64,000 bases of DNA. Origin: Nanobdellota archaeon. GTDB lineage: Archaea; Nanobdellota; Nanobdellia; Pacearchaeales; GW2011-AR1. The position numbers and the translations under genes were made by a program. The stretch lies in the NCBI GenBank assembly GCA_018830525.1, contig JAHJSH010000029.1, positions 105,697-169,696 on the forward strand, in the 5' to 3' direction. This document shows positions 19,782 to 43,958 of this stretch, in pieces. The notes under the pieces are model-generated. The model was not told where the DNA came from. It saw only the letters and a program-made list of their open reading frames with translations, and made no database searches. The stretch's first letter is position 1. Every line of letters begins with the position of its first letter.

Positions 19782-22175
19782 ATGAAAAAGGGTGAACAGA
19801 AAGAGGTTATCAGATTGAGAAATGTTTCTAAGCATTATCCAATGGGAGATTCGATAGTTAAGGCGCTTAACCATGTAGAGTTAAAAGTTTTTCAAGGAGA
19901 ATTTATTGCAATCATGGGGCCTAGTGGTTCGGGGAAATGTCTTGTTGGGGAGACGGAGGTAGTTGGGAAAGATGGAGTTCCCTATAGGATCGAAAATTTT
20001 GATGGGAGGGGTGTATTTTCTTGCGACTTTAATAACGGAAAGATTGTTTCGAGTGACGTTGTTGATTTTCACAATAGAGATGAATCTAAATTAATTGAAA
20101 TAAAAACAACTGGTGGCAGGAAGATTAGTGCGACAGAAGATCATCCTTTTTTTAGTATTAATGAAGGGGGTGTTTGTGAGATTTTCGCGAGTAACTTGGG
20201 TAAGGGGAATTTTATTGCTTGTCCTAGAAAAATAAAAATTAGGGGAAAGTGTCAAAATTTAAATTCGTTTGAAAAATTAAGTAAAGATAAATCACTAATA
20301 ATTTATGATTCGGTAAATTTAGTTAGAAATGTTTTTGAAAATATTGGAGTATCTAAGGCAACGGTTTGTAAAAAATTTGGGATAGCCCCTGGAACTTATG
20401 ACTGTTGGAAAACAAAAAACAATATTCCGCTTAATTTATTTAGTAAGATATTAAATTTGTATGGTAAAAATATTAAAGATTATAATAATTTGTTGTTGAC
20501 TGGTATGTGTTCTCGGAAAAAAGTTTGTATCCCGATGGTGACTAGTCCTAAACTAATGGAATTATATGGTTATTTAACTGGAGATGGTAATCTTGATAGA
20601 GATGGATTAAAGTTTACTAATTTTGATAAAGGGTTGGTGGGTAGATTTATTGGTTTGTCTAGGGATGTTTTTAAAACTGAACCGTGTGTTAGGCATGGAA
20701 GAACTGATATGAACTCGCGAGTTTTGGTTTCTTTTTTTAATAAGGTCTTTGGATTTTCAAAAATTAAAAAATCTAGGAATATTAGATTGCCTGATTTTGT
20801 TTTTAGATGTAGCGAAAAGGAGATTGCCGGATTTATTAGGGGGTTGTTTGACTGTGATTCTCATATTTATTTAAACAGGAAAGAAATTGTACTTACTCTT
20901 GCAAGTGAAAATTTAATTAAACAGGTTTGGAATTTGCTTTTGAGATTTGGTATTGTCGGGCGATATTCTGAAAAAGAGAAATATGCTGCGAATACTAAAT
21001 TGAAGATTCGAAGGAAATATTATTCGTTGTCAATTTCTGGATATGAAAATTTGAAATTGTATAATGAGTTTATTGGGTTTAATTGTTTAAAGAAAAGTAG
21101 GCGACTAAAGGACCATCTGAAAAATAAGGGTAATACTAATGTTGATGTGATTCCTTGTGGCGATTTAATTAGAAAAATACGTAGGGATTCTGGTATTAAT
21201 TTTAATAGAGCTATTCATAAATTTTTGTGGCCCTATGAGACGAAAAAGATTAATCCATCTATTCGCCAATTGGAGAAAATTATTAAGGTGTTTAAAAAGG
21301 GAGGGGTTCGAGAGGAGGAGTTGAAAGAATTAAAGAAGTTGGTAAAGGCTGAGATATTCTGGGATAAGATACTTTCAATAAAAAAAATAAGAAAGAAAGT
21401 TAAGGTTTATGACTTGACGGTTCCGGAAACTAATAATTTTATTGCTAATAATTTTATTGTTCATAATTCAACTGCGATGAATTTAGTAGGGAGTCTTGAT
21501 GTGCCGACACATGGAACAATTTATCTAGATGGTGGGGATATTGCAGAATTGAGTGAATCTGATTTAGCCCAAGTCCGTGGGAAGAAGATAGGATTTATTT
21601 TTCAGTCTTTTAATTTGATTAATAATTTGACGGTGAAAGAAAATGTCATGTTGCCGATGATGTTTCAGGGGACGAGTTTTGAGGAGAGAAGTGATAAGGC
21701 TGAAGATTTGTTGAGGTTGGTTGAGTTGCATGATAGGATGGACCATTATCCAGGGGAGATTTCTGGAGGACAGATGCAGAGGGTTGCGATTGCTCGGAGT
21801 TTAGCGAATGACCCAGAAGTTGTGTTGGCTGATGAGCCAACTGGAAATTTGGATACGAAGACTGGTGCGATTGTTATGGATTTTTTGAAGAAGTTAAATA
21901 AACAAGGGAAGACAGTGATTATGGTTACTCATGATCCAGACCTAGCTAAGGAGTATGCTGATGTTATTTATTGGTTGAAGGATGGGGAATTGGAGAAGGT
22001 TACGAAAAGGTCTGGGAAAAGTTTTATTGATGTTACTAAGAGGAAGAAGAAAGAAGCTTCTGCCGAAGCTTCACACACTCATTTGTCTAATAGAAAGAAA
22101 ATGAGTAAAGAAGTTAAATCCGATGGTCGTCGCGCCACCGGGCATACCCCCCACTCGCGGAGTAAGGGGGTATAA
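19782..22175 (+). CDS. ABC transporter ATP-binding protein (MacB/LolD-like) interrupted by an intein
   Basis: The Walker A reads GPSGSGK, then the intein, then STAMNLVGSLDVPTHG. The Q-loop, signature motif (LSGGQMQRVAIAR), Walker B and H-loop all follow the insert. Confidence 0.85.
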   Translation: MKKGEQKEVIRLRNVSKHYPMGDSIVKALNHVELKVFQGEFIAIMGPSGSGKCLVGETEVVGKDGVPYRIENFDGRGVFSCDFNNGKIVSSDVVDFHNRDESKLIEIKTTGGRKISATEDHPFFSINEGGVCEIFASNLGKGNFIACPRKIKIRGKCQNLNSFEKLSKDKSLIIYDSVNLVRNVFENIGVSKATVCKKFGIAPGTYDCWKTKNNIPLNLFSKILNLYGKNIKDYNNLLLTGMCSRKKVCIPMVTSPKLMELYGYLTGDGNLDRDGLKFTNFDKGLVGRFIGLSRDVFKTEPCVRHGRTDMNSRVLVSFFNKVFGFSKIKKSRNIRLPDFVFRCSEKEIAGFIRGLFDCDSHIYLNRKEIVLTLASENLIKQVWNLLLRFGIVGRYSEKEKYAANTKLKIRRKYYSLSISGYENLKLYNEFIGFNCLKKSRRLKDHLKNKGNTNVDVIPCGDLIRKIRRDSGINFNRAIHKFLWPYETKKINPSIRQLEKIIKVFKKGGVREEELKELKKLVKAEIFWDKILSIKKIRKKVKVYDLTVPETNNFIANNFIVHNSTAMNLVGSLDVPTHGTIYLDGGDIAELSESDLAQVRGKKIGFIFQSFNLINNLTVKENVMLPMMFQGTSFEERSDKAEDLLRLVELHDRMDHYPGEISGGQMQRVAIARSLANDPEVVLADEPTGNLDTKTGAIVMDFLKKLNKQGKTVIMVTHDPDLAKEYADVIYWLKDGELEKVTKRSGKSFIDVTKRKKKEASAEASHTHLSNRKKMSKEVKSDGRRATGHTPHSRSKGV
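19938..21467 (+). mobile_element. Intein with LAGLIDADG homing endonuclease domain inside the ABC ATPase Walker A motif
   Basis: It begins with Cys (CLVGETEV) and ends ...FIVHN before extein Ser. The two LAGLIDADG blocks are LYGYLTGDGNL and IRGLFDCDSHI. Its 510 aa split GK|S of the P-loop. Confidence 0.8.
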
Positions 22176-33091: not shown

Positions 33092-33643
33092 TTGTTTATG
33101 GGGTTAACTCTTTATGTTGGTGCTGATGAAGCAGGACATGGTAGCCGAAAAAGTGATGAAATTATTGTCGCTGCATTTTCCCTCTATCATGGGGATGGGG
33201 GGAAGATTCACATCCCTGTTGGAAGAAATTCCAATTCGGCGAAGAACTATCTTGCTACGCAGGGGAAGGGATGGTTATTTACTCTGAATGGAAAATTTGC
33301 TCGAGAGAGTTTGACATTAGAAGTTCCGGGACTTATTGATTACTGGGTAAGGAAAAATGATTTGGCAAAAGATGATTTGAGAATCGCTTCGGCATTTGAT
33401 GGGGAGTTAAATTTAGGGAGACAAGAACAATTTAAGGAAGAAATGAGGAGAAGATATAATTTTTCTGAGGATATAGATATAAGGCATCATGCGAAGACCC
33501 AGCACATTGGGAAAAGGAAGGAAAAATCTTATGACTCTAAACTCGTCTGGGCCGCAGATTCTATAGCAAGTAATCTTTTTATGGAATCTCGTAAAAAAAT
33601 TAATCTTCGAGGCCATCAGCAATACGTTCCTGTGGAGAATTAG
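33092..33643 (+). CDS. Divergent RNase HII-like protein
   Basis: GADEAGHG...IVAAF and WAADSIASNLF resemble the RNase HII motifs GIDEAGRGP...VIAA and ADSKYP-VSAASI, but the protein is short. Confidence 0.4.
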   Translation: MFMGLTLYVGADEAGHGSRKSDEIIVAAFSLYHGDGGKIHIPVGRNSNSAKNYLATQGKGWLFTLNGKFARESLTLEVPGLIDYWVRKNDLAKDDLRIASAFDGELNLGRQEQFKEEMRRRYNFSEDIDIRHHAKTQHIGKRKEKSYDSKLVWAADSIASNLFMESRKKINLRGHQQYVPVEN

Positions 33644-34461
33644 TTTAGTGTATCTATGGGTGATTTTATTTTTTTGAGTTCTTCGGTTGATACGTGAGTA
33701 TAGATTTGTGTTGTTGAAAGGTCGGCGTGTCCTAAGAGTTCTTGAATTTTCCTGATGTCGACATTATCCTCCAGTAAATGAGTAGCGAAGGAGTGTCGGA
33801 GGGTGTGGCAATGGGCTTCATTTAGGCCGGCTCGTTTTGCTGCGAATGAAACAATCTTTTGGAGATTTCTTGTGGAAAGTTTTCCACTCTTTCCGGTAAA
33901 TAAAAATTCTTTGCCTTCCTGCTTCTTCGCTTGGGATTGAAGTTCTTCTAATAAAAATTCTGGGATGTTGAATATTCTGTCTTTGTTTCCTTTCGCTTGA
34001 CGGATGTGCCCTATTTTTTCTGGGAAATTAAAATCTACAATTTTTAAGTTGACCAGTTCAGAGACTCGGAACCCGCAAGCATACATTAACTTAACCATAA
34101 GTTTTGATTTTTCAGTTTTAATTACATCGAATAATTTTTTAACTTCGTCTTTTGAAAGAGTTATTGGAAGTCTCTGTTCTTTTTTTGGTCGTTTGATTTG
34201 GGCGGTTATATCTTTTTGAAGAATTGAGGAGTAAGCATACTTAATCGCGGCGAGAAAAAGAATTATAGAGGTCGCTGCCTTATCGGTTAAGTTATTTGCC
34301 ATAAACTGTTTTATGTCGTCGCTGTTTATTTCTTCAGGCAATTTATTTGCGGATTCTAAGAGTTTTTGGTTTGCATCCAGATAATTTCGGAGAGTATATT
34401 CAGAATTTTTTGAGATTTTTAATTCTGTTTCAAGTTTTTTTAGAAATTCTTCAGCATTCAT
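33640..34461 (-). CDS. Tyrosine recombinase (XerA/XerC-like integrase)
   Basis: HTLRHSFATHLLE...LLGHADLSTTQIYTHV catalytic box with the Tyr. Confidence 0.85.
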   Translation of the reverse strand: MNAEEFLKKLETELKISKNSEYTLRNYLDANQKLLESANKLPEEINSDDIKQFMANNLTDKAATSIILFLAAIKYAYSSILQKDITAQIKRPKKEQRLPITLSKDEVKKLFDVIKTEKSKLMVKLMYACGFRVSELVNLKIVDFNFPEKIGHIRQAKGNKDRIFNIPEFLLEELQSQAKKQEGKEFLFTGKSGKLSTRNLQKIVSFAAKRAGLNEAHCHTLRHSFATHLLEDNVDIRKIQELLGHADLSTTQIYTHVSTEELKKIKSPIDTLN

Positions 34462-34536
34462 TTTTCACCTCTAAGATTGTACGAACTTTGGGTTTAAATT
34501 ATTATTGCATAAGTTTTTATATTTTGATTTGGTATA

Positions 34537-34824
34537 ATGAGGGTGGAAGAAAAAGAGATGTTTAAAGCGGTTTGTTCCGACTGTGGGCAGGAATGTGAAA
34601 TTCCGTTTAAGCCGACAGAAGGACGTCCGGTTAAATGCAGAGACTGTTTCAGAAAGGGCCGGCCTCAGCGAGATAATTCTCGGGGCGGAGGAAATTTCAG
34701 ACGAGAGCGGAGAGATTTCGATGTGACTTGCGCCGAATGCGGAAAAGAAACAACAGTCCCTTTCAAACCGACACAAGGCAAGCCAGTTCTTTGCAGAGAT
34801 TGTTTTAAAAAACCACAAAATTGA
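34537..34824 (+). CDS. Tandem zinc-ribbon protein (zf-trcl-like CxxC-x17-CxxC x2) with RGG-rich linker
   Basis: Two repeats of C..CG.E..VPFKPT.G.PV.CRDCF.K. Confidence 0.55.
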   Translation: MRVEEKEMFKAVCSDCGQECEIPFKPTEGRPVKCRDCFRKGRPQRDNSRGGGNFRRERRDFDVTCAECGKETTVPFKPTQGKPVLCRDCFKKPQN

Positions 34825-35312
34825 TTTTCGTTTAACCGAATAACTATTATCTTTATTCATAGTAGGACTTTTTAGATATCTGAAATTATGGTGACAGCGA
34901 TGCTGATTTTATATTTTTTTGGAGTTTTATTCTATGATTTTTGAAGATTTGGGGTTCTCACTTACCTCTGACTGTTTTTTGTTAGATATTTTTATTGGTA
35001 TACTTGAGGTCTCACATTTCTTGGAAGGGGGTTGAATTTTTTATTTTTTCTAACTCTTCCACCGCGGGCGTACCCCTTCTTCGGAAGGGGCAACTTTTTC
35101 TGATCAAAAGTTCGAGTTTGCTAACTCTCACTTTTTCACTTGAAAATATGTGGGAATTAAAAAATTCAAATTTTAGAATTTTAGAAATAGAAAAGTGGCG
35201 ATTAAGCGTTTTAAGGTGCCAAGAATCGATTTTTTTGTTCAAAACGAGTAAGGAATCAGCTCAAATGCTTAAAATTCCTGGAAGGGGGCTTGAAATTTGC
35301 CGGAGAAATATT

Positions 35313-35798
35313 CTAATTTTGGAGTGAAGCTCTTTTATGAAAGTCAATTTTTTCATCAAGTGGCAAGTCAAATCCTTTTTCTTTGAGGATTTTAAAGATT
35401 TCTGGACGGAAGTTGAAATTATTGATCATCCGGTGATGGTTTGGGCAGAGTCCGATTAAGTTTTTTGGCGAGTTGTTCTGTTTGTTCTTGTCGATATGGT
35501 GGAGATCGACGATTTTGTCGAAGCCGCATATGACGCATTCTTTGGTTGTTTTTCGGTAGGTTTGGAGGTCAACGTTGTTCGATTTTCGGGCGTTGTAAGC
35601 CTTGTTTTTGTCTAGATGGAATAGGGAGTTGTAGCAGCCAGCGCAGAGGCCTTTTGCGTGAAGGGCCATTTCCCGTTTGCATCGCTTGCATTTTTGGATC
35701 TTAGGTTTCCAGTTGAGCTTTTTGTAACAGGGATAGCAAAGGCCCTTGGCATGATGTTCTTTTTCTTGAGAGCAGTTGCTGCATTTTTTTATCACCAT
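35313..35798 (-). CDS. HNH endonuclease with duplicated N-terminal zinc ribbons
   Basis: Two CxxC...HAKGLCxxCY modules, then CVICG...HHID...N...CPNHH. Confidence 0.6.
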   Translation of the reverse strand: MVIKKCSNCSQEKEHHAKGLCYPCYKKLNWKPKIQKCKRCKREMALHAKGLCAGCYNSLFHLDKNKAYNARKSNNVDLQTYRKTTKECVICGFDKIVDLHHIDKNKQNNSPKNLIGLCPNHHRMINNFNFRPEIFKILKEKGFDLPLDEKIDFHKRASLQN

Positions 35799-35888
35799 GT
35801 CCTAGAAAAAGCGTTCGCATATTAAAAACTTTGTGCAAACGGGCCATTTTCGTTCGTTTTGGCATGGAAGAACGTCATACAATCTATA

Positions 35889-36269
35889 TTATGCGAACTC
35901 GAGACTTTCTGGAGCCATTTTTCGGCGTGTATCATATCTTAGCGGGGTGGGAGAGTCTTTTTGTTCAGTCATATCGTAAGTAAAGAGCCAATGGCCGCCC
36001 TTGGTCACTGAAAAGGATCTTTCATAAGCCAAAGGATTTTCTCTGAATTTTCTTTCGATTTTCTTTAGTGTGGGAGAGCTTTTGGGCAAGGCATTTAGGG
36101 AAAAGCTTTCTATATCTGCAAATTCCACAAGGCCATCTAAATACTGGCTTAAAGCCAATGTGGCCCCTTCCCTTGTTTCTCCGGCCCCACATTCGTCATA
36201 TTTACTACAACGATTGGTGTATTTGCCCGATTGCTTGTCTTTGTAGAGAAAGGAAATAAATATCTTCAT
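35889..36269 (-). CDS. Hypothetical protein (weak HicB/UPF0150-like resemblance)
   Basis: ECGAGETREGATLAL...YLDGL resembles a HicB antitoxin core. No hicA partner was found. Confidence 0.3.
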   Translation of the reverse strand: MKIFISFLYKDKQSGKYTNRCSKYDECGAGETREGATLALSQYLDGLVEFADIESFSLNALPKSSPTLKKIERKFRENPLAYERSFSVTKGGHWLFTYDMTEQKDSPTPLRYDTRRKMAPESLEFA

Positions 36270-36497
36270 TTTTGATTAAAATTTCTGAAATTTTTAAGGA
36301 TTTATGTTGTCTAGGGCGTACCAAATTTCTGTCTCTGTGCCTGACGATTGTGCACTTTGGTTAACTTAGTGCATAATACACTTTATAAGTTATTTTGGTG
36401 GGAGGATTTTGTTAAAAATTTGACTGAAATTTGAGAAAAAAATAAGGTGCCCAAGGGTTGCTTGGACAGATAAAAAATTGATAAAAATTATTTGTTT

Positions 36498-36701
36498 TTA
36501 CTTCTTGAAAACTGCAAGGATTACGCTGATGATTGCACCGACTACTACGACCCAACCAGCAATTTGAACAATGATTCCACTGGCTATGTCACTTATCCCT
36601 GGGATCGTTAGAACTTTATTAATCATCCCAGACCCAACAGCTAGTGCTACGATCACACCGACGACCCACGCAAAGATTCCTACAATTGTATTATCTGCCA
36701 T
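36498..36701 (-). CDS. Small membrane protein (2 TM)
   Basis: Hydrophobic 67-aa ORF. Confidence 0.3.
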   Translation of the reverse strand: MADNTIVGIFAWVVGVIVALAVGSGMINKVLTIPGISDIASGIIVQIAGWVVVVGAIISVILAVFKK

Positions 36702-36711
36702 GTTTACCTCC

Positions 36712-37002
36712 TTATCTTTTTTTTCTCCGTGCCGTGAAATGGAAAAATACCATTGCCAACACGAATGAAATTATGATTGTAAGGAGGAAAGAATCGGTTA
36801 AAGTTGTTGTATACCCAAAGTATTCTGTGACCGAATTTAGGCTTGAAACTTTGTCTGGATTTAGACTACAAAGAGTCCATTTATATATCGGGGGATAGAG
36901 TGCTGCAGACTTCCGGCAAGGGACAATTGGAATGATTATTGAGGCTACCAAAACTGCCGCAGAAACTAACGCGGAGTATATCAACCTTCTTTTAAATATC
37001 AT
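36712..37002 (-). CDS. Small membrane protein
   Basis: Hydrophobic 96-aa ORF. Confidence 0.3.
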   Translation of the reverse strand: MIFKRRLIYSALVSAAVLVASIIIPIVPCRKSAALYPPIYKWTLCSLNPDKVSSLNSVTEYFGYTTTLTDSFLLTIIISFVLAMVFFHFTARRKKR

Positions 37003-37169
37003 ATTTTTGTTAAGATTTTGAAGTTTATAATTGTTTTGGAAGCAAAAATCTCATAAATTTAGGGGGTTGTTTGGACAGATTCAAACACTTAGGGGTGTTA
37101 AAACATTCTTTTTTGGTGTTTGGACAGCCGTTTAAGTGTTTTTTCACTCCACGAAGATAGTTTAAATAG

Positions 37170-37185
37170 TTTATCGACGATAAAA
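37170..37185. repeat. 16-bp inverted repeat TTTATCGACGATAAAA, left arm (partner at 38329-38344)
   Basis: Exact reverse complement of 38329-38344; the pair flanks a 1.16-kb segment. Confidence 0.8.
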
Positions 37186-37189
37186 GTTA

Positions 37190-37945
37190 GTGTTTATGAA
37201 TTGGACAGCCAAGTTATTTTGGTTGTTTTGGGGGTTATTTCAGTTAGTTTGGTGTTTGGGTGATTGTTTTTTGGTGTTTGTTGTCCAAACACCGCGAAAC
37301 ATTTATAAAGAAAGCTGTTTAGAAGTTAGTAAGATGTTTGGTTTATTTGGTCATAAAAAGAGAATCGAAAAGTTAAGAACTGAAGTCCAGGATTCTTTTA
37401 ATCATGTGAAGAAAGACTTTAATAAAGTTGGTGAATGGATTAAACATCTCGACGATAAACATTCATCTCATGAGGGGGAAATTTCTAGTATCAAAAATCA
37501 ACTTATGACTATCCATGAGGACCTTATGGAGCTAAAAGATTTCGTTTCTTTCTTTGGTCCACAGATTTCTAAGGGGCTGTCCAAACAAACACAAACGAGC
37601 GTGGTAAAACAACCATTGAGGGGGGCTGTCCAAACACTTGTCCAAACGGGTGTCCAAACAGACGTTTTAGAGAATTTAACAGTAATGGAACGGGCAATTG
37701 TGTGGGCATTATTAAACTCTGAGATGAGATTAAGTTATGAAGATCTTGCTGCCCTATTAGGTAAAGATAAGAGTACTATAAGGGGCCAAATTAACGCGAT
37801 TAAACAGAAGAGTGAAGGTTTAATTGAAGAGTCTAGAGAGGTAAATGGTAAGAAAAGGCTCTATATTCCTGATGAAATCCGTACAATGGTGGTCAAAGGC
37901 GTAAAAGTGAAAATAAAGGGATCAAATAAAGGTCAAAAAGAGTGA
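37190..37945 (+). CDS. Coiled-coil + C-terminal winged-helix DNA-binding protein (paralog of 38471-39106)
   Basis: N-terminal hydrophobic segment, coiled coil, VQT low-complexity linker, then a wHTH (LTVMERAIVWALL...STIRGQINAIKQK). Confidence 0.5.
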   Translation: MFMNWTAKLFWLFWGLFQLVWCLGDCFLVFVVQTPRNIYKESCLEVSKMFGLFGHKKRIEKLRTEVQDSFNHVKKDFNKVGEWIKHLDDKHSSHEGEISSIKNQLMTIHEDLMELKDFVSFFGPQISKGLSKQTQTSVVKQPLRGAVQTLVQTGVQTDVLENLTVMERAIVWALLNSEMRLSYEDLAALLGKDKSTIRGQINAIKQKSEGLIEESREVNGKKRLYIPDEIRTMVVKGVKVKIKGSNKGQKE

Positions 37946-38247
37946 AAACGTGAAAAGTGAGAGTTAGGGAGGTAAATTTGGCTTAAAAATTGGTAGTTTT
38001 TTAAGTAAACGAAGTGAAAAAGTGAGGTCTTTTTGGCATATATCCTATTCACTGGAAAAGTGAGATGCGGAGGATATCTGGCTTTAAGTGAAAAGGTGAG
38101 GTTTGGAAGATAAATGAGCCAAATTTTGCGAAAAAATGACATGCCCAAATAGGAAAGATTTGGGGTTATGGGGAGAGAGTTAAGAGTTAATTTTTAGTTT
38201 GGATGTTCGCGACATACTTGAAATGTTCAGGGCAAAAGTGAGGAATT
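37942..38247 (+). repeat. Iteron array: six direct copies of (GTG)AAAAGTGAG
   Basis: Copies at 37942, 37950, 38014, 38055, 38088 and 38234. An inverted copy CTCACTTTTTCAC lies at 35126-35138. Confidence 0.75.
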
Positions 38248-38328
38248 AACTAATCGTTTAACCGAATAACTATAGTTTTAACTGGATTCATGGCAAAAAG
38301 TTTGCTTATAAATCTAGTAGAAATAATA

Positions 38329-38344
38329 TTTTATCGTCGATAAA
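38329..38344. repeat. 16-bp inverted repeat, right arm
   Basis: TTTTATCGTCGATAAA is the reverse complement of 37170-37185. Confidence 0.8.
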
Positions 38345-38470
38345 TTAATAGTTTTTGGAGTAGGAGAGTTTGTGTATAAAATGGCCAAAAGTTGGTTATT
38401 TTAGTCTTATAATTCCCTTAACTTGAAAATTGTGTCTAAAGTAACGTTTAAAGTAAACGTTTCATGAATC

Positions 38471-39106
<636 letters not shown>

Positions 39107-39225
39107 TACTTTTTTAGAACTTTCTAGTTTATAATGTTAGTTGTTTTAAGAACTATAGTTCTGTTTTTAGTGTTTTTGAAAAAATCCTTTCATAATAGAA
39201 TTACTTTTGAGAATTTATTAAAATT

Positions 39226-39495
39226 TTATTGATGCTTTTTATAAATTTCGTATGCTTTGTTGGAGATTCTCCACCTTAATCTTCGTGAATATTGAAACCC
39301 TTGAGAATTTTTATCAATTTTTTTCACTAATTCTTTTTTTTCTAAATCTTTTAGCAAATCTTTCATGAATTCTTCGTCTCTTGCGAGCTCTTTTGCGATG
39401 TCAGAAGTGAAAACTTGTTTTGGGAATACAGAATATAAGTAGGAAAGTATTTGTTCGGCGATCTTCTCTTTTTTTTGGTCTGAAATTTTGGGCAT
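39226..39495 (-). CDS. Small winged-helix-like DNA-binding protein
   Basis: 89 aa, basic and helix-rich. Upstream sits TTTATAAAACCGAATAACT, a partial inverted copy of the 34828 and 38254 repeat. Confidence 0.4.
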   Translation of the reverse strand: MPKISDQKKEKIAEQILSYLYSVFPKQVFTSDIAKELARDEEFMKDLLKDLEKKELVKKIDKNSQGFQYSRRLRWRISNKAYEIYKKHQ

Positions 39496-41141: not shown

Positions 41142-41188
41142 CCCGAATCGAACGGGGATGCCCCGAAGGGCCGCGGGTTCGAGCCGCC
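41142..41188 (-). repeat. Partial copy (anticodon arm to T-arm, 47 nt) of the adjacent tRNA-Ser; att-site-like
   Basis: 45 of 47 nt are identical to tRNA-Ser positions about 27-72, and the copy diverges at the acceptor. Confidence 0.8.
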
Positions 41189-41216
41189 ACTCTCAAAATT
41201 TGCGTTTCGTTAAAGA

Positions 41217-41297
41217 CGCCTGTACCCCGAATCGAACGGGGATGCCCCGAAGGGCCGCGGGTTCGAGCCGCGTGCGATACCATTACGCGATACAGGC
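41217..41297 (-). tRNA. tRNA-Ser(CGA)
   Basis: Minus strand: GCCUGUA acceptor, CGCGG-CUCGAAC-CCGCG anticodon arm, long variable arm GCCCUUCGGGGCAU, T-arm CCCCG-UUCGAUU-CGGGG and discriminator G. Confidence 0.8.
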
Positions 41298-41395
41298 ACA
41301 TGCTTAAAGCGAATTTTTTGGCAATACCAATTATGCGATACGAGCAACTTATTTAGTTATATTAATAGAAAAGAGATCTTATTAAAATTATGGAA

Positions 41396-42151: not shown

Positions 42152-42299
42152 GGGTTGATTAGATGTAAATTGTTTATAAATCTTTCTTTTGGATTTTTAT
42201 TGAATAATAGTAGTGAAGTAATTAGATTTTTAGAGAGATTTTTAAATATTGGGGTGGGAATTATAAGGATTGTGCGAACTTTATTATTTTTTATCTCCT

Positions 42300-42740
42300 G
42301 ACCCTATGGTTGCGTATGGAAAGATTTATAAAAGTTTTTAGGGATTTTTGAATTTTATTTTATAATTTTTATTTATAAATATTTATATTATATATTATAT
42401 ATATTATATTATATACTATTAGTATATCTATATTTCAATTTAGTATATTTTAGTATAACTGTATTTCAATTTAGTATATTTTAGTATAACCTTTTTTAGA
42501 AAAGTGGGGGTGGTGATAAAAATATTTAATATTATTTTTTATTTCCTTTGGAGGGGAAATAAGGGGGTCAGAGGATATTGCTCTTAAATTGATCTATCGA
42601 GGGGGGGTTTTTGTTTTTTTGTGATGATTTTTGTTTTTTTGGATGTTATTACTTCTAGATGAAATGGTGGTGGTGAGGGTATGATTTCCAGTATATGAAA
42701 GTTTAAATAGTTCAAAGTTTGGGGTTATTTATGGGTGTAA
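42300..42740. other. Putative chromosomal replication origin (oriC) upstream of orc1/cdc6
   Basis: A very AT-rich (ATATT)n tract, a 29-bp tandem direct repeat x2 (42431-42459, 42462-42490), a palindromic ORB-like ATTTCCTTTGGAGGGGAAAT + G-string (42541-42570), and AGTGGKGGTGGTGA x2. Gene order oriC-cdc6-polD follows, as in Euryarchaeota. Confidence 0.55.
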
Positions 42741-42743
42741 AAA

Positions 42744-43958
42744 ATGGGTGTTGAATTAGGAGATATTTTTAATTCGGCGGTAAATAATAGTTTATTTAAG
42801 AATAAGGGGGTTTTACAGGCCCGTTATACTCCAGAGTCAATTCCTCATAGGGATGTTCAGATTAAATCTATCGCAGGAATTTTGGCTTCAACATTGAGGG
42901 GAGAGCGCCCGAGTAATCTTTTTGTCTATGGGAAAACCGGAACGGGAAAGACACTTTCGGTTTTGTATGTTCGAGATGAGTTGATAAAAAAGGCGGAGGA
43001 ACTAAATGTTGATGTTCGGTTTGAATATCTTAATTGCAAATTGAAGAAGGTTGCGGACACAGAATATAGGATTTTGGCTGCATTGATTGGTCAGTTGGGT
43101 GGGTCGGTTCCTTCCACGGGTCTTCCGACGGACCAGGTTTGGTCTAAGTTTATCGAGTTGGTGGATAGCAAGAAACAATTGATTGTTTTTATTTTGGATG
43201 AGGTTGATCAAGCGGTGAAGAAGATGAGTGATAATTTTCTTTATTCCTTGACGAGGCTTAATGCTGAATTGAGCCAGGCGCAGATTTCTATTATTGGGAT
43301 TTCTAATGATGTAACTTTTTTAGAGAATATAGATCCTCGTGTTCGTTCGAGTCTTGGTGAGGAGGAGTTTGTTTTTCCACCTTATAATGCTCCTCAATTG
43401 ATTGATATTCTTAAGGGGCGTTGTGAGGGGGCTTTTAAAGTGAGCGTTATTGAAGAGGGGGTTGTTGAAAAGTGCGCGGCTTATGCGGCCCGGGAACATG
43501 GTGACGCGCGTCGTGCTTTAGATTTATTGAGGATTGCAGGAGAATTAAGTGAGCGTGAGGGTGAAGAGCATGTGGGGGAAAAATATATTGATTTAGCGAA
43601 TAGAAAGATGGAGAGGGACAAGATTTTGGATATTGTGGAGGCTGAGCCGAAGCAGTTTCAATTGGTCTTGTATTCTATCCTGCGTTTGACCCGGCAGGCA
43701 AAAGAAGGAGGGCTTGAGAGGTTTTATACGGGGGATGTCTATAATTATTATCGTTCGGTTTGCGAACAAACGAAGACGGACGCTCTAACACAGAGGAGGA
43801 TTTCAGATATTATCGCAGAGATTGATATGTTGGGGTTGATTAATGCGAAGGTCATTTCTAAAGGACGACATGGTCGTACTAGAGAGATTAAACTTTCGGT
43901 TCCTTCGAATTTGTTTGATAAGGTCGAAGATATTTTGAATGAGAGTTTGGGTTTGTAG
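42744..43958 (+). CDS. cdc6: Orc1/Cdc6 replication initiator
   Basis: Walker A GKTGTGKT, AAA+ body and a C-terminal winged helix. Confidence 0.9.
   Translation: MGVELGDIFNSAVNNSLFKNKGVLQARYTPESIPHRDVQIKSIAGILASTLRGERPSNLFVYGKTGTGKTLSVLYVRDELIKKAEELNVDVRFEYLNCKLKKVADTEYRILAALIGQLGGSVPSTGLPTDQVWSKFIELVDSKKQLIVFILDEVDQAVKKMSDNFLYSLTRLNAELSQAQISIIGISNDVTFLENIDPRVRSSLGEEEFVFPPYNAPQLIDILKGRCEGAFKVSVIEEGVVEKCAAYAAREHGDARRALDLLRIAGELSEREGEEHVGEKYIDLANRKMERDKILDIVEAEPKQFQLVLYSILRLTRQAKEGGLERFYTGDVYNYYRSVCEQTKTDALTQRRISDIIAEIDMLGLINAKVISKGRHGRTREIKLSVPSNLFDKVEDILNESLGL

Follow-up and report, generated by a model that had tools for sequence, protein, structure and literature searches.

Mirror-image arrays of a short direct repeat beside the replication origin of Pacearchaeota/Woesearchaeota-type archaea and their possible role as protein docking sites

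The 64,000-nt stretch of Nanobdellota archaeon DNA analyzed here (the window, numbered from its first nucleotide) includes a gap between two winged-helix protein genes that holds several copies of a short repeat. A sequence-only reading had described an iteron-like family of six direct copies between two divergent paralogous regulators, with an inverted copy 2.8 kb away, and had proposed a toggle or an origin module of a mobile element. What are these repeats for: switching genes, starting replication, moving DNA, or something else?

Read from the sequence, the array spans 37941-38243 and follows the consensus (GTG)AAAAG(G)TGAG. The repeats are real and their number is near the six that had been counted, but the exact count is five full copies plus one partial copy. 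The features of the array and its flanks are as follows:

37334-37945, plus strand: ORF1, 203 aa, candidate binder of the array
37941-37949, plus strand: partial copy, AGTGAAAAC, overlapping the ORF1 stop codon (TGA, 37943-37945)
37950-37961, plus strand: copy 1 (inner), GTGAAAAGTGAG, extending as AGTTAG to 37967 to give GTGAAAAGTGAGAGTTAG at 37950-37967
37982-38005, plus strand: A-run/T-run hairpin between copies 1 and 2, CTTAAAAA-TTGGTAG-TTTTTTAAG
38014-38027, plus strand: copy 2, GTGAAAAAGTGAGG, 65 nt from copy 1 (the 65-bp spacing class)
38053-38064, plus strand: copy 3, TGGAAAAGTGAG, with inverted arms ATATCCT (38040-38046) and AGGATAT (38071-38077) on either side
38088-38101, plus strand: copy 4, GTGAAAAGGTGAGG, a variant with one extra G
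38128-38140: degenerate copy, GCGAAAAAATGAC
38137-38168, plus strand: conserved hairpin (UGAC, CCCAAAT, loop AGGAAAG, ATTTGGG, GUUA)
38231-38243, plus strand: copy 5 (outermost), GGCAAAAGTGAGG, whose GTGAG stops 11 nt short of the palindrome
38254-38273, plus strand: right palindrome-containing box, TCGTTTAACCGAATAACTAT, identical over 20 nt to 34828-34847
38471-39106, minus strand: ORF2, 211 aa, with a short N-terminal coiled coil, a QT-rich linker, and a winged helix

The extended consensus of copy 1 is GAAAAAGTGAGAGTTAG. The core 9-mer AAAAGTGAG occurs five times on the two strands of the 64 kb vs 1.06 expected, a count not attained in any of 100 shuffles; four of these matches lie inside 290 bp. 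A loose 12-mer with up to two mismatches is not enriched across the window (9 vs 7.4 expected), so the array signal depends on the core 9-mer and on clustering. The 16-17 nt of the inner copy are kept across loci whether they are in-frame coding, out-of-frame coding, or non-coding (in some homologues copy 1 codes for the C-terminal KSES-stop; in the window it lies past the stop and out of frame), and thus the constraint acts on nucleotides. Coding across the array by a minus-strand ORF (37933-38148, 71 aa) was rejected because the copy spacing steps by about 10 nt, not 3 nt, and the spacers are unrelated between genomes. A recoding signal at the ORF1 stop was also rejected, since the position of copy 1 ranges from 60 nt within the gene to 206 nt beyond it.

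The array sits in a conserved neighborhood. The gene order xerA, zf, HNH, TM, TM, ORF1, array, ORF2, wH89, PRC, oriC, cdc6, polD is shared by 31 species-level genomes, and the same order from xerA to polD is kept in most of 120 metagenome contigs (more than 100) from Pacearchaeota/Woesearchaeota; the motif, the helical-phase rule, the palindrome, and the two candidate binders are conserved beside a clearly recognizable origin in more than 150 sampled contigs. Every protein-anchored locus that extends past the ORF1 homologue (30/30) has two to five copies 0-300 nt after its stop, and every locus with an HNH homologue (23/23) has one to three inverted copies just beyond the HNH gene. Location is close to exclusive, with 131 motif matches in arrays (5.2 per kb) vs 15 elsewhere (0.028 per kb), an enrichment of ~185-fold. 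Scanning metagenomes with the motif as anchor yielded 122 matches spread over 120 contigs, of which 91 stood immediately behind an ORF1 homologue (42-92% identity) and 9 behind an HNH homologue; the remainder were at contig ends or unresolved. The same kind of scan of viral contigs gave zero matches. Across the 91 metagenome matches and the 30/30 protein-anchored loci, the array starts between 60 nt inside the 3' end of the ORF1 homologue and 206 nt after it, and every copy is in sense orientation relative to the gene it follows.

The inverted copy previously placed at 35126-35138 was borne out by direct reading as 35121-35139 on the minus strand, and it belongs to a second array on the HNH side of the block:

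34828-34847, plus strand: left palindrome box, beginning 4 nt past the stop codon of the zinc-finger gene
34957-34965, minus strand: second left-hand copy, GTAAGTGAG, kept in relatives L032, L034, and L004
35121-35139, minus strand: inner copy of the left array, GTGAAAAAGTGAGAGTTAG, 174 nt downstream of the HNH gene stop codon
35313-35798, minus strand: HNH/zinc-ribbon protein gene

The 15-nt core of this inner copy is 100% complementary to 37953-37967. The two arrays face outward, the right one always following ORF1 and the left one following the HNH gene wherever that is present, and they are mutually inverted in 23/23 protein-anchored loci with an HNH homologue. Where the HNH gene is lost, so is the left array, which does not track ORF1: five of the six HNH-less loci with enough upstream flank have no left array, and the sixth, L031, has two minus-strand copies upstream. 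The GGAAGGGG boxes at 35023, 35083, and 35280, which had been noted near the inverted copy, were rejected as part of the system; they are not significantly enriched (6 in the window vs 2.9 expected), and the first two lie in a stretch without counterpart in the close relatives L032 and L034.

The 20-bp direct repeat formed by the two palindrome boxes (34828-34847 and 38254-38273) is exact and brackets a 3.4-kb block. We rejected it as a pair of att sites from a recent insertion of this block, as the box stands at both positions in most relatives; the block is missing as a unit in none of the loci compared. The box after the array is itself conserved in most relatives, and the best copies of the palindrome have a 9-6-9 layout as in tyrosine-recombinase core sites. 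This layout is compatible with an archaeal dif, but published archaeal dif sites look different (11-6-11, single-copy, in the terminus region; PMC2958812) and the loci compared include no inversion or excision variants, so we retain that identification as a side remark at most.

Spacing within the arrays points to protein binding. In the 31 protein-anchored loci, which were found via the protein and so form a sample unbiased for spacing, the distances from copy 1 to copy 2 are 33, 44-45, 54-55, 63-66, 81-86, and 135. The period that fits best is 10.1 bp (R 0.81; P<5e-5 vs uniform or jittered nulls), and the result holds when each size class is counted once (P=0.005). Among 174 distinct arrays, of which related ones are not independent samples, spectral power is 0.78 at 10-10.25 bp. 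The spacers between copies 1 and 2 are unrelated sequences in different size classes. The last copy is in most cases separated from the palindrome by 11-13 or 21-23 nt, one or two turns, and the distances between later copies show no helical phasing. When A-tract distances are pooled over arrays they show a 10.3-bp oscillation (0.73 vs 0.14 in controls), and coherence per array is modestly above controls; the window by itself has no significant A-tract phasing (P 0.12), and we use such phasing as supporting evidence, not as independent proof. The copy 1-copy 2 distance falls into classes at ~34, 44, 54, 65, 84, and 135 bp, and its quantization at ~10.1-10.2 bp argues for protein binding on a single face of the DNA, with ORF1 and/or ORF2 as the most plausible binders. 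With their strong conservation, direct orientation, and first two copies in helical phase, the repeats deserve the earlier label of iteron-like, and they are predicted to be protein-binding sites.

The candidate binder closest at hand is ORF1. Its true start is the ATG at 37334, where all homologues begin, behind a TATA box (TTTATAAA at 37303-37310). The protein comprises a helix (residues 2-82), a disordered VQT-repeat linker, a MarR-like winged helix (117-187), and a Lys-rich tail; the model, in which the winged helix has pLDDT 86-91, shows a single winged helix plus the long helix, and the best structural matches in a fold search are MarR-family DNA-binding domains, some of them solved with DNA. 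A MxGLFGHKKR segment is conserved at the N-terminus, and homologues fall into 2334 clusters, with identity similar to that of cdc6. In the ORF2 sequence, HTH_11, HTH_36, and HTH_24 matches lie above Pfam cut-offs, and weak HTH_36 and DnaD_N matches were also recorded. Both flanking ORFs exist as the sequence-only reading had them, but they are convergent, with their 3' ends facing each other, and not divergently transcribed. The claims that they are paralogues and share an N-terminal helix or coiled coil plus a C-terminal winged helix both held: profile-profile alignment with hhalign relates them distantly (probability 90.8%, E 1.2e-6, 146 columns), a relation that BLASTP alone does not detect (E 0.18). 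Naming the two proteins by sequence and fold searches gave generic winged-helix matches only, under family cut-offs, and the ParB-type likeness of ORF1 is sub-threshold (Pfam HTH_ParB E 0.0046, under the cut-off; Noc E 0.11). A third winged-helix neighbor is an 89-aa protein (wH89) at 39226-39495. A Pfam scan of 20 neighboring ORFs, covering every ORF of at least 80 aa from 32 to 46 kb apart from the PolD large subunit, found no partition NTPase (ParA/ParM/TubZ/SegA).

Altogether, the explanation that we consider best, and that we put forward tentatively, is that the GAAAAGTGAG repeats serve a sequence-specific protein as binding sites on DNA and form an origin-proximal docking site that is centromere-like or chromosome-organizing. 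The two mirror-image arrays, in convergent-gene gaps, flank a conserved block of the HNH gene, two small membrane proteins, and ORF1. The adjacent ORF1, with its long helix and flexibly tethered MarR-like winged helix, would be the binder, possibly with its paralogue ORF2; ORF1 dimers would contact at least two repeats on one helix face and, together with a palindrome binder, could build a higher-order architectural complex. The role of the array is most likely that of a chromosome-organizing or centromere-like docking site and not that of a promoter operator, replication origin, or mobile-element module. The ORF1-ORF2 gap is dense in motif families restricted to the locus, and at least four local families other than the array repeat compete for the candidate binders, namely ORF1, ORF2, the 89-aa protein, or Orc1/Cdc6.

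It is possible, if rather unlikely, that the arrays work instead at the RNA level, as extended 3'UTRs of ORF1 and the HNH gene or as small RNAs derived from their 3' ends, with GAAAAGUGAG motifs in single-stranded stretches or loops between hairpins that are bound by an RNA-binding protein or steer mRNA fate, whether through titration of the Csr/Rsm kind or as a two-gene 3'UTR regulon. Both arrays are sense to the gene just upstream, and the presence of the left array in 23/23 HNH loci and its loss in 5/6 HNH-less loci is simpler under a 3'UTR element than under ORF1-bound DNA sites. The hairpin between copies 1 and 2, present in most relatives with unrelated sequences, is likely the ORF1 terminator, and the copy 1-2 spacers fold better as plus-strand RNA (72 vs 38, Wilcoxon 1e-4). 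The sole conserved structure in 34 right-hand regions is the hairpin at 38137-38168, with 11 bp, five covarying pairs, and ~15 G.U pairs, on the plus strand only; 39 distinct hairpins contain 110 Watson-Crick, 7 G.U, and 0 A.C pairs. The covariation and the G.U pairs on the plus strand only suggest that the array region is probably transcribed. However, the plus strand is rich in G and has a C-to-T type bias, and this composition alone favors G.U over A.C mismatches. With its consensus ANGUNAG, the loop of the hairpin is similar to the motif, and in some loci it reads AAGUGAG or AGGUGAG. This recalls CsrB/RsmZ sponge RNAs and repeated 3'UTR motifs, where a short purine-rich motif recurs three to six times between hairpins; the orientation of the motif also matches the upstream gene. 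Unlike these RNAs, the locus has DNA helical phasing, T-run terminators between copies, and one conserved hairpin. The T5-T6 runs at 37997-38002 and 38030-38034, which are archaeal termination signals, stand between copies, and neither the 10-bp spacing quantization nor the one- or two-turn offset to a DNA palindrome has an RNA rationale. The left-hand regions have no conserved RNA structure, and Rfam gives nothing in or near the arrays (window at gathering threshold; 34700-38600 at E<=5). We know of no cognate RNA-binding protein for the array motif.

A more specific form of the docking-site reading, which we regard as unlikely, is that Pacearchaeota/Woesearchaeota-type DPANN use the arrays as their chromosomal centromere or origin tether, with ORF1 anchoring the origin to the membrane or division machinery. 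ORF1 would dimerize via its 80-residue helix, its tethered winged helices would occupy the phased repeats that flank the ORF1 gene on either side, and the MxGLFGHKKR segment, which we take to be a possible amphipathic membrane-binding helix as in Noc, would then anchor the origin region to the membrane or division machinery. One PRC-barrel gene lies beside oriC, and the PRC-barrel family has been implicated in archaeal cell division. Partition centromeres directly follow the gene of their binder in F (sopB-sopC), P1 (parB-parS), R1 (parC), and pBtoxis (TubR-tubC), and Bacillus subtilis has parS inside spo0J as well as origin anchoring by RacA at ram sites. The locus is like these in having short direct repeats at or over the 3' end of a DNA-binding protein gene, near an origin and in helical register, and ORF1 resembles RacA in combining a helix-turn-helix type domain with a long helix. 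It is unlike them in having no ParA/ParM/TubZ/SegA-type NTPase gene nearby, in being phased at the first two copies only with irregular distal copies, in the sub-threshold ParB-type likeness of ORF1, and in the second mirror array that follows an unrelated HNH gene.

Transcriptional control is distinctly unlikely. Here the repeats would be operators or roadblocks by which ORF1 and/or ORF2 govern either read-through between the convergent genes or an unannotated small-RNA promoter in the gap, which is a loose version of the earlier toggle idea. The toggle proper does not survive: the genes converge, so the array at their 3' ends lies in neither promoter, and the two promoters checked (37303-37310 and 39107-39225) carry no copies. 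Phased sites are typical of wrapping regulators, copies 1 and 2 flank the ORF1 terminator hairpin, and besides its dense locus-restricted motifs the gap contains further conserved boxes, namely the palindrome, ATCGWCGAT, and a BRE/TATA-like AAAAAGTTTGCTTATAAAT at 38296-38314. However, any promoter in the gap is putative, and the HNH-side array has no paralogous regulator beside it. Wrapping regulators with phased operator arrays are known from the Lrp/FFRP family, such as Ss-LrpB; as in those, the sites here are whole turns apart in A-tract-rich bendable DNA, and the binder is an oligomeric winged-helix/HTH protein (here a candidate). Theirs are (pseudo)palindromic and lie in promoters, whereas the copies here are direct repeats between convergent 3' ends.

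An iteron-type origin is very improbable, either as a second chromosomal origin with ORF1/ORF2 as initiators or as an integrated plasmid or virus origin. Phased direct repeats on one helical face beside winged-helix genes do resemble the Rep-iteron cassettes of plasmids such as pSC101, F, R6K, and RK2, the weak HTH_36 and DnaD_N matches of ORF2 would fit an initiator, and the 3.4-kb block lies within an exact 20-bp direct repeat. However, the array has genome-average GC (36%), GC falls to 27% in the lowest 60-nt window, and A/T-only runs reach 14 nt at most; there is no AT-rich DNA unwinding element in it, in contrast to the 65-nt A/T-only run upstream of cdc6:

42250-42600: canonical oriC, a 65-nt A/T-only core between inverted ORB-like boxes, upstream of orc1/cdc6 (42744-43958)

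With this textbook archaeal oriC in place, 4.3 and 7.3 kb from the two arrays, the array is not the origin, and the origin-module proposal falls. The clade's ORB-like boxes, read from 12 origin regions and lying here at 42290-42330 and 42540-42580, carry a TTCC-N-GGAA dyad and a G-string, and the inverted arrangement of dyad and G-string around the AT-rich core is conserved in 17 loci. The arrays resemble ORB/mini-ORB sites, which Orc1/Cdc6 binds, in being inverted groups of repeats a few kb from cdc6, and some copies read GTGGAAAAGTGAG, sharing GTGGAAA with what we take to be the ORB core. They differ in having neither the dyad nor the G-string of the clade's own boxes, for which reason we rejected the motif as an ORB, and in flanking genes, not an unwinding element. 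A literature search on origins or ORBs of DPANN, Pacearchaeota, or Woesearchaeota found nothing relevant. Unlike plasmid iterons, the locus is chromosomal, syntenic, and vertically inherited with its flanks, and ORF1 has one winged helix plus a long helix, whereas Rep proteins have two winged helices. The mobile-element version is largely refuted already: the neighborhood is syntenic in the 31 genomes and most of the 120 contigs, no relatives of the array or ORF1 were found in viral contigs, phages, or plasmids, and the 20-mer, a box that other genomes conserve as well, is no fresh att site.

Least likely of all, and by our estimate extremely improbable, is that the opposed arrays are polar, Ter-like barriers that trap forks beside oriC, while XerA would act on the palindromes as dif-like sites: the asymmetric site in two mutually inverted clusters, an adjacent xerA, the 9-6-9 palindromes, and a plus-strand GC3 skew that is positive on both sides of oriC without inversion at 42.4 kb would suit it, but the skew is positive also in the 4 kb between array and oriC, which a trap does not predict, no locus shows inversion or excision of the block, the known archaeal dif is unlike these palindromes in number, position, and look, the arrays lie beside oriC and not at a terminus, and no skew inversion, as at a strand-composition switch, occurs anywhere in the 64 kb. 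To our knowledge, no Ter system is known in archaea.

For annotation, the correction is that this locus is not a mobile element; it marks the oriC neighborhood of these genomes. DPANN archaea have tiny genomes and are almost entirely uncultured, and we know of nothing established on how their chromosomes are organized or segregated. The locus offers a testable handle in the form of a 10-17-bp motif, a helical-phase rule, a companion palindrome, and two paralogous candidate binders, and the candidate proteins can be made recombinantly and tried on synthetic DNA without culture. If the arrays act as RNA, they would be a clade-wide 3'UTR or small-RNA element. If ORF1 does tether the origin, this would be ParA-independent origin anchoring and the first cis-acting segregation site proposed for the DPANN superphylum. 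If the arrays are an origin-proximal docking site, as we tentatively favor, they would represent a new type of chromosomal cis-element in archaea.

The 525-bp gap between ORF1 (37334-37945, +, 203 aa) and ORF2 (38471-39106, -, 211 aa) contains a purine-rich motif in five full copies, numbered outward from the ORF1 stop, and an inverted copy lies beyond the HNH gene (35313-35798, -).

Copies of the purine-rich motif in the window (copies 1 to 5 by sequence reading)
35121-35139, -: inverted copy GTGAAAAAGTGAGAGTTAG, longer than the 9-mer core
37941-37949, +: partial copy spanning the ORF1 stop codon
37950-37961, +: copy 1, GTGAAAAGTGAG
38014-38027, +: copy 2, GTGAAAAAGTGAGG
38053-38064, +: copy 3, TGGAAAAGTGAG
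38088-38101, +: copy 4, GTGAAAAGGTGAGG
38231-38243, +: copy 5, GGCAAAAGTGAGG

The repeats, noted in an earlier sequence-only reading, are real: the 64-kb window holds five occurrences of the 9-mer AAAAGTGAG, where 1.06 would be expected, and each of 100 shuffles gave fewer. Of these matches, four lie inside the ORF1-ORF2 gap, and the remaining one (35127-35135) belongs to the inverted copy that had also been noted, 15 nt of which are perfectly complementary to 37953-37967. Six copies had been counted in the gap; five are full and the sixth is only partial.

A protein-anchored scan with one genome per species identified 31 loci in MAGs of Pacearchaeota, Woesearchaeota, and Nanoarchaeota, in which ORF1 identity is 47-83% and gene order is conserved.

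Conserved gene order
Left part: recombinase-domain protein, XerA, CxxC zinc-finger protein, HNH protein, two small membrane proteins
Middle: ORF1 (+), ORF2 (-), 89-aa winged-helix protein
Right part: (variable surface protein), 132-aa protein, PRC-barrel protein, oriC, cdc6, polD

Each of the 30 loci whose sequence continues beyond ORF1 has two to five + strand copies of AAAG(G)TGAG in the ~300 nt that follow the gene, and each of the 23 loci carrying an HNH homologue has one to three - strand copies just beyond the HNH gene. This left array is absent from five of the six HNH-less loci with sufficient upstream flank; the exception, L031, has two - strand copies upstream. The innermost copy on both sides carries the extended consensus GAAAAAGTGAGAGTTAG. 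Rather than being scattered and unlinked to these genes, the motif totals 131 occurrences in arrays (5.2 per kb) vs 15 elsewhere (0.028 per kb). A motif-anchored scan of metagenome contigs (AAAAGTGAGAGTTA-N25-55-AAAAGTGAG) gave 122 matches on 120 contigs, 91 directly after an ORF1 homologue (42-92% identity) and nine after an HNH homologue, the remainder being at contig ends or unresolved. This pattern had no match in viral contigs, and no ORF1 relatives were found in the plasmid, phage, or viral collections searched. The mobile element proposed by the sequence-only reading is thus refuted, as the motif is tied to a conserved gene order. A "Nanoarchaeota archaeon" MAG encodes a hypothetical protein identical to ORF1, and the homologues of ORF1 form 2334 clusters.

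The distance between copies 1 and 2 is quantised across the 31 protein-anchored loci (33, 44-45, 54-55, 63-66, 81-86, or 135 nt), which carry no spacing bias from how they were found. The best period is 10.1 bp (R 0.81; P<5e-5 against uniform or +/-5-nt jitter nulls), with P=0.005 when each size class is counted once, and 174 distinct arrays give a spectral power of 0.78 at 10-10.25 bp. Spacers of different size classes have no sequence relationship, and what stays constant, as read from the spacers, is their total length modulo one helical turn. In most cases, 11-13 or 21-23 nt separate the last copy from the palindrome that follows. A-tract distances in pooled arrays oscillate at 10.3 bp (0.73 vs 0.14 in controls), also with the motif masked, the phasing being modest per array and not significant in this window alone. 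Because it follows a DNA helical rule, the repeated motif is most likely a protein-binding site.

Comparison of relatives shows a common order in the gap from the ORF1 stop: copy 1 with AGTTAG, an A-run/T-run hairpin whose sequence is wholly different from lineage to lineage, copy 2, zero to two more copies, a conserved hairpin, the last copy, a conserved box, small boxes, and the ORF2 3' end. Copy 1 supplies the codons for the C-terminal KSES-stop in some ORF1 homologues, lies past the ORF1 stop in another frame in the window, and elsewhere ranges from 60 nt inside the ORF1 homologue to 206 nt past it. Since it is variably coding or non-coding and shifts frame, the constraint is on nucleotides, not protein. 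The conserved box (TCG-NTTAAN-CGAATAAC), which contains the palindrome mentioned above, is represented in the window by the exact 20-mer TCGTTTAACCGAATAACTAT, whose only two matches in the whole 64 kb (34828-34847 and 38254-38273) are in direct orientation and bracket both arrays; most relatives keep it on both sides. The best box copies form a 9-6-9 dyad (AGTTATTCG GTTTAA CGAATAACT) laid out like the core site of a tyrosine recombinase or the operator of a dimeric winged-helix protein. The xerA gene (33640-34461) adjoins the box. Palindromes TTTATCGACGATAAA and TTTATCGTCGATAAA are found at 37170-37184, upstream of ORF1, and 38331-38345, in the gap; the left-hand regions of other loci likewise carry CGWCGATAAA-like boxes. 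The last 11 codons and stop of ORF2 are duplicated in tandem over 39 nt (92%; 38405-38443 vs 38469-38507), with a small hairpin, AACGTTT-AAAGT-AAACGTT (38444-38462), between the copies; locus L001 has the same duplication.

The true ORF1 start is ATG 37334, common to all homologues, with a TATA box at 37303-37310. BLASTP did not relate ORF1 to ORF2 (E 0.18). Profile-profile comparison of 24 ORF1 and 22 ORF2 homologues aligned them over the N-terminal helix, Q/T-rich linker, and winged helix (probability 90.8%, E 1.2e-6, 146 columns), bearing out the earlier suggestion that the two proteins are paralogous. The AlphaFold model of ORF1 has a pLDDT of 72 overall and 86-91 in the domain.

Regions of ORF1 in the AlphaFold model
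Residues 2-82: single helix
Residues 83-116: disordered linker
Residues 117-187: winged helix
After the winged helix: disordered Lys-rich tail

Foldseek groups the domain with MarR-family DNA-binding winged helices, including DNA complexes; ParB/Noc-type similarity was below threshold only. The (CTGT)n microsatellite-like run in ORF2 (38843-38881) encodes a (QTDR)n linker that the profile comparison aligns to the VQT-repeat linker of ORF1. A further motif family, GTCCAAAC / GTTTGGAC (37066-37306 and 37578-37660), probably the "first iteron family" of the sequence-only reading, has copies at -51, -216, and -266 from the ORF1 start and four more within ORF1, encoding the VQT repeats. Most of 24 genomes use the same rare codon choice, GTC-CAA-AC, in these repeats, suggesting that the coding sequence is constrained here at the DNA level.

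We tentatively interpret the arrays as phased sites on the DNA where the neighbouring winged-helix protein(s) would dock; with the palindrome they would form an architectural complex that flanks the ORF1 block on both sides, near oriC. ORF1 would be dimeric through its helix, and its two winged helices, on long flexible tethers, could span two direct repeats three to six turns apart on one DNA face; judging from the model, such a reach would fit the spacing rule. The closest likenesses are centromere arrays that directly follow the gene for their binding protein (sopB-sopC, parB-parS) or, in the case of parS in spo0J, lie inside it, together with RacA-type origin anchoring. Partition cassettes are defined by a partner NTPase, which is missing from the 20 neighbouring ORFs scanned against Pfam, so we do not file the locus among them.

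It is unlikely, in our view, that the arrays are instead 3'UTR or small-RNA motifs, as several RNA-level features could suggest. Both arrays are sense-oriented to the upstream gene, the left array is lost along with the HNH gene, and the spacers between copies 1 and 2 give better folds as RNA of the + strand. Across 34 right-hand regions, RNAalifold found a single conserved 11-bp hairpin (38137-38168 in the window) with five covarying pairs and ~15 G.U pairs whose opposite-strand counterparts would be A.C mismatches; three variable pairs of its inner 7-bp stem, in 39 distinct versions, comprise 110 Watson-Crick, 7 G.U, and 0 A.C. This G.U excess is weakened because the G-rich + strand alone favours G.U pairs, and T5-T6 runs between copies are a further caveat. 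The left region has no conserved RNA structure, and Rfam gave no match. In our reading, the gap is probably at least partly transcribed, with RNA hairpins that would include an ORF1 terminator and one more. A transcription roadblock, or an operator for read-through or a small-RNA promoter, seems quite improbable; ORF1 (+) and ORF2 (-) are convergent, so the array lies between two 3' ends and not between promoters, contrary to the divergent toggle once envisaged.

A second or mobile origin is very improbable. The array has no unwinding element, and its GC of 36% equals the genome average. A canonical archaeal oriC lies at 42250-42600, upstream of orc1/cdc6 (42744-43958), which is followed by both PolD subunits. 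Its core of 65 A/T-only nt (0% GC over 60 nt) sits between inverted ORB-type boxes (TTTC...GGAAA dyad plus G-string, GACCCTAT opposite GGGGGTCAGAGG), and oriC also has tandem 31-nt repeats (42421-42489); the A/T core and inverted ORB-like boxes with G-strings are kept in 17 related loci. The chromosome origin is therefore at ~42.25-42.6 kb, with the right array 4.3 kb and the left array 7.3 kb away. Of the iteron reading, helically spaced, iteron-like putative binding repeats survive, but not the mobile element or origin. A Ter-like fork trap with XerA sites, which the recombinase-like box layout might recall, is hardly credible.

GC3 skew on the + strand is positive for genes on either strand (13000-64000) and keeps its sign across the predicted oriC (42.4 kb): - strand genes have +0.27 and +0.32 just to its left and +0.05 to +0.51 to its right, which may reflect non-replicative bias or unusual replication. 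The box AGTTCGYACAAT occurs four times (0.39 expected), all on the - strand and confined to the origin-proximal 8 kb: just upstream of the xerA start (34476-34487), upstream of the HNH gene (35888-35899), within ORF2 (38828-38839), and within oriC (42269-42280). It recurs in left-hand regions of several relatives. The segment 35040-35110, shared with locus L029 and without counterpart in close relatives L032 and L034, contains a perfect hairpin (CCCCTTC-TTCG-GAAGGGG) and, with its right-hand edge, the first two of three GGAAGGGG boxes; it may be a small insertion element or a fragment of a structured RNA. An internal 46 nt of tRNA-Ser(CGA) (41215-41298, -) is duplicated exactly (41142-41187 vs 41226-41271, 84 nt apart) directly after the variable 519-aa surface-protein gene, which suggests an att-like scar of past integration at the tRNA. 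An intein that carries a LAGLIDADG homing-endonuclease domain splits an ABC-type ATPase gene (19782-22175).

We found no description of the array element or the ORF1/ORF2 family in the searchable literature. The array element is amenable to testing in vitro and is conserved widely within an archaeal superphylum that is still poorly understood.
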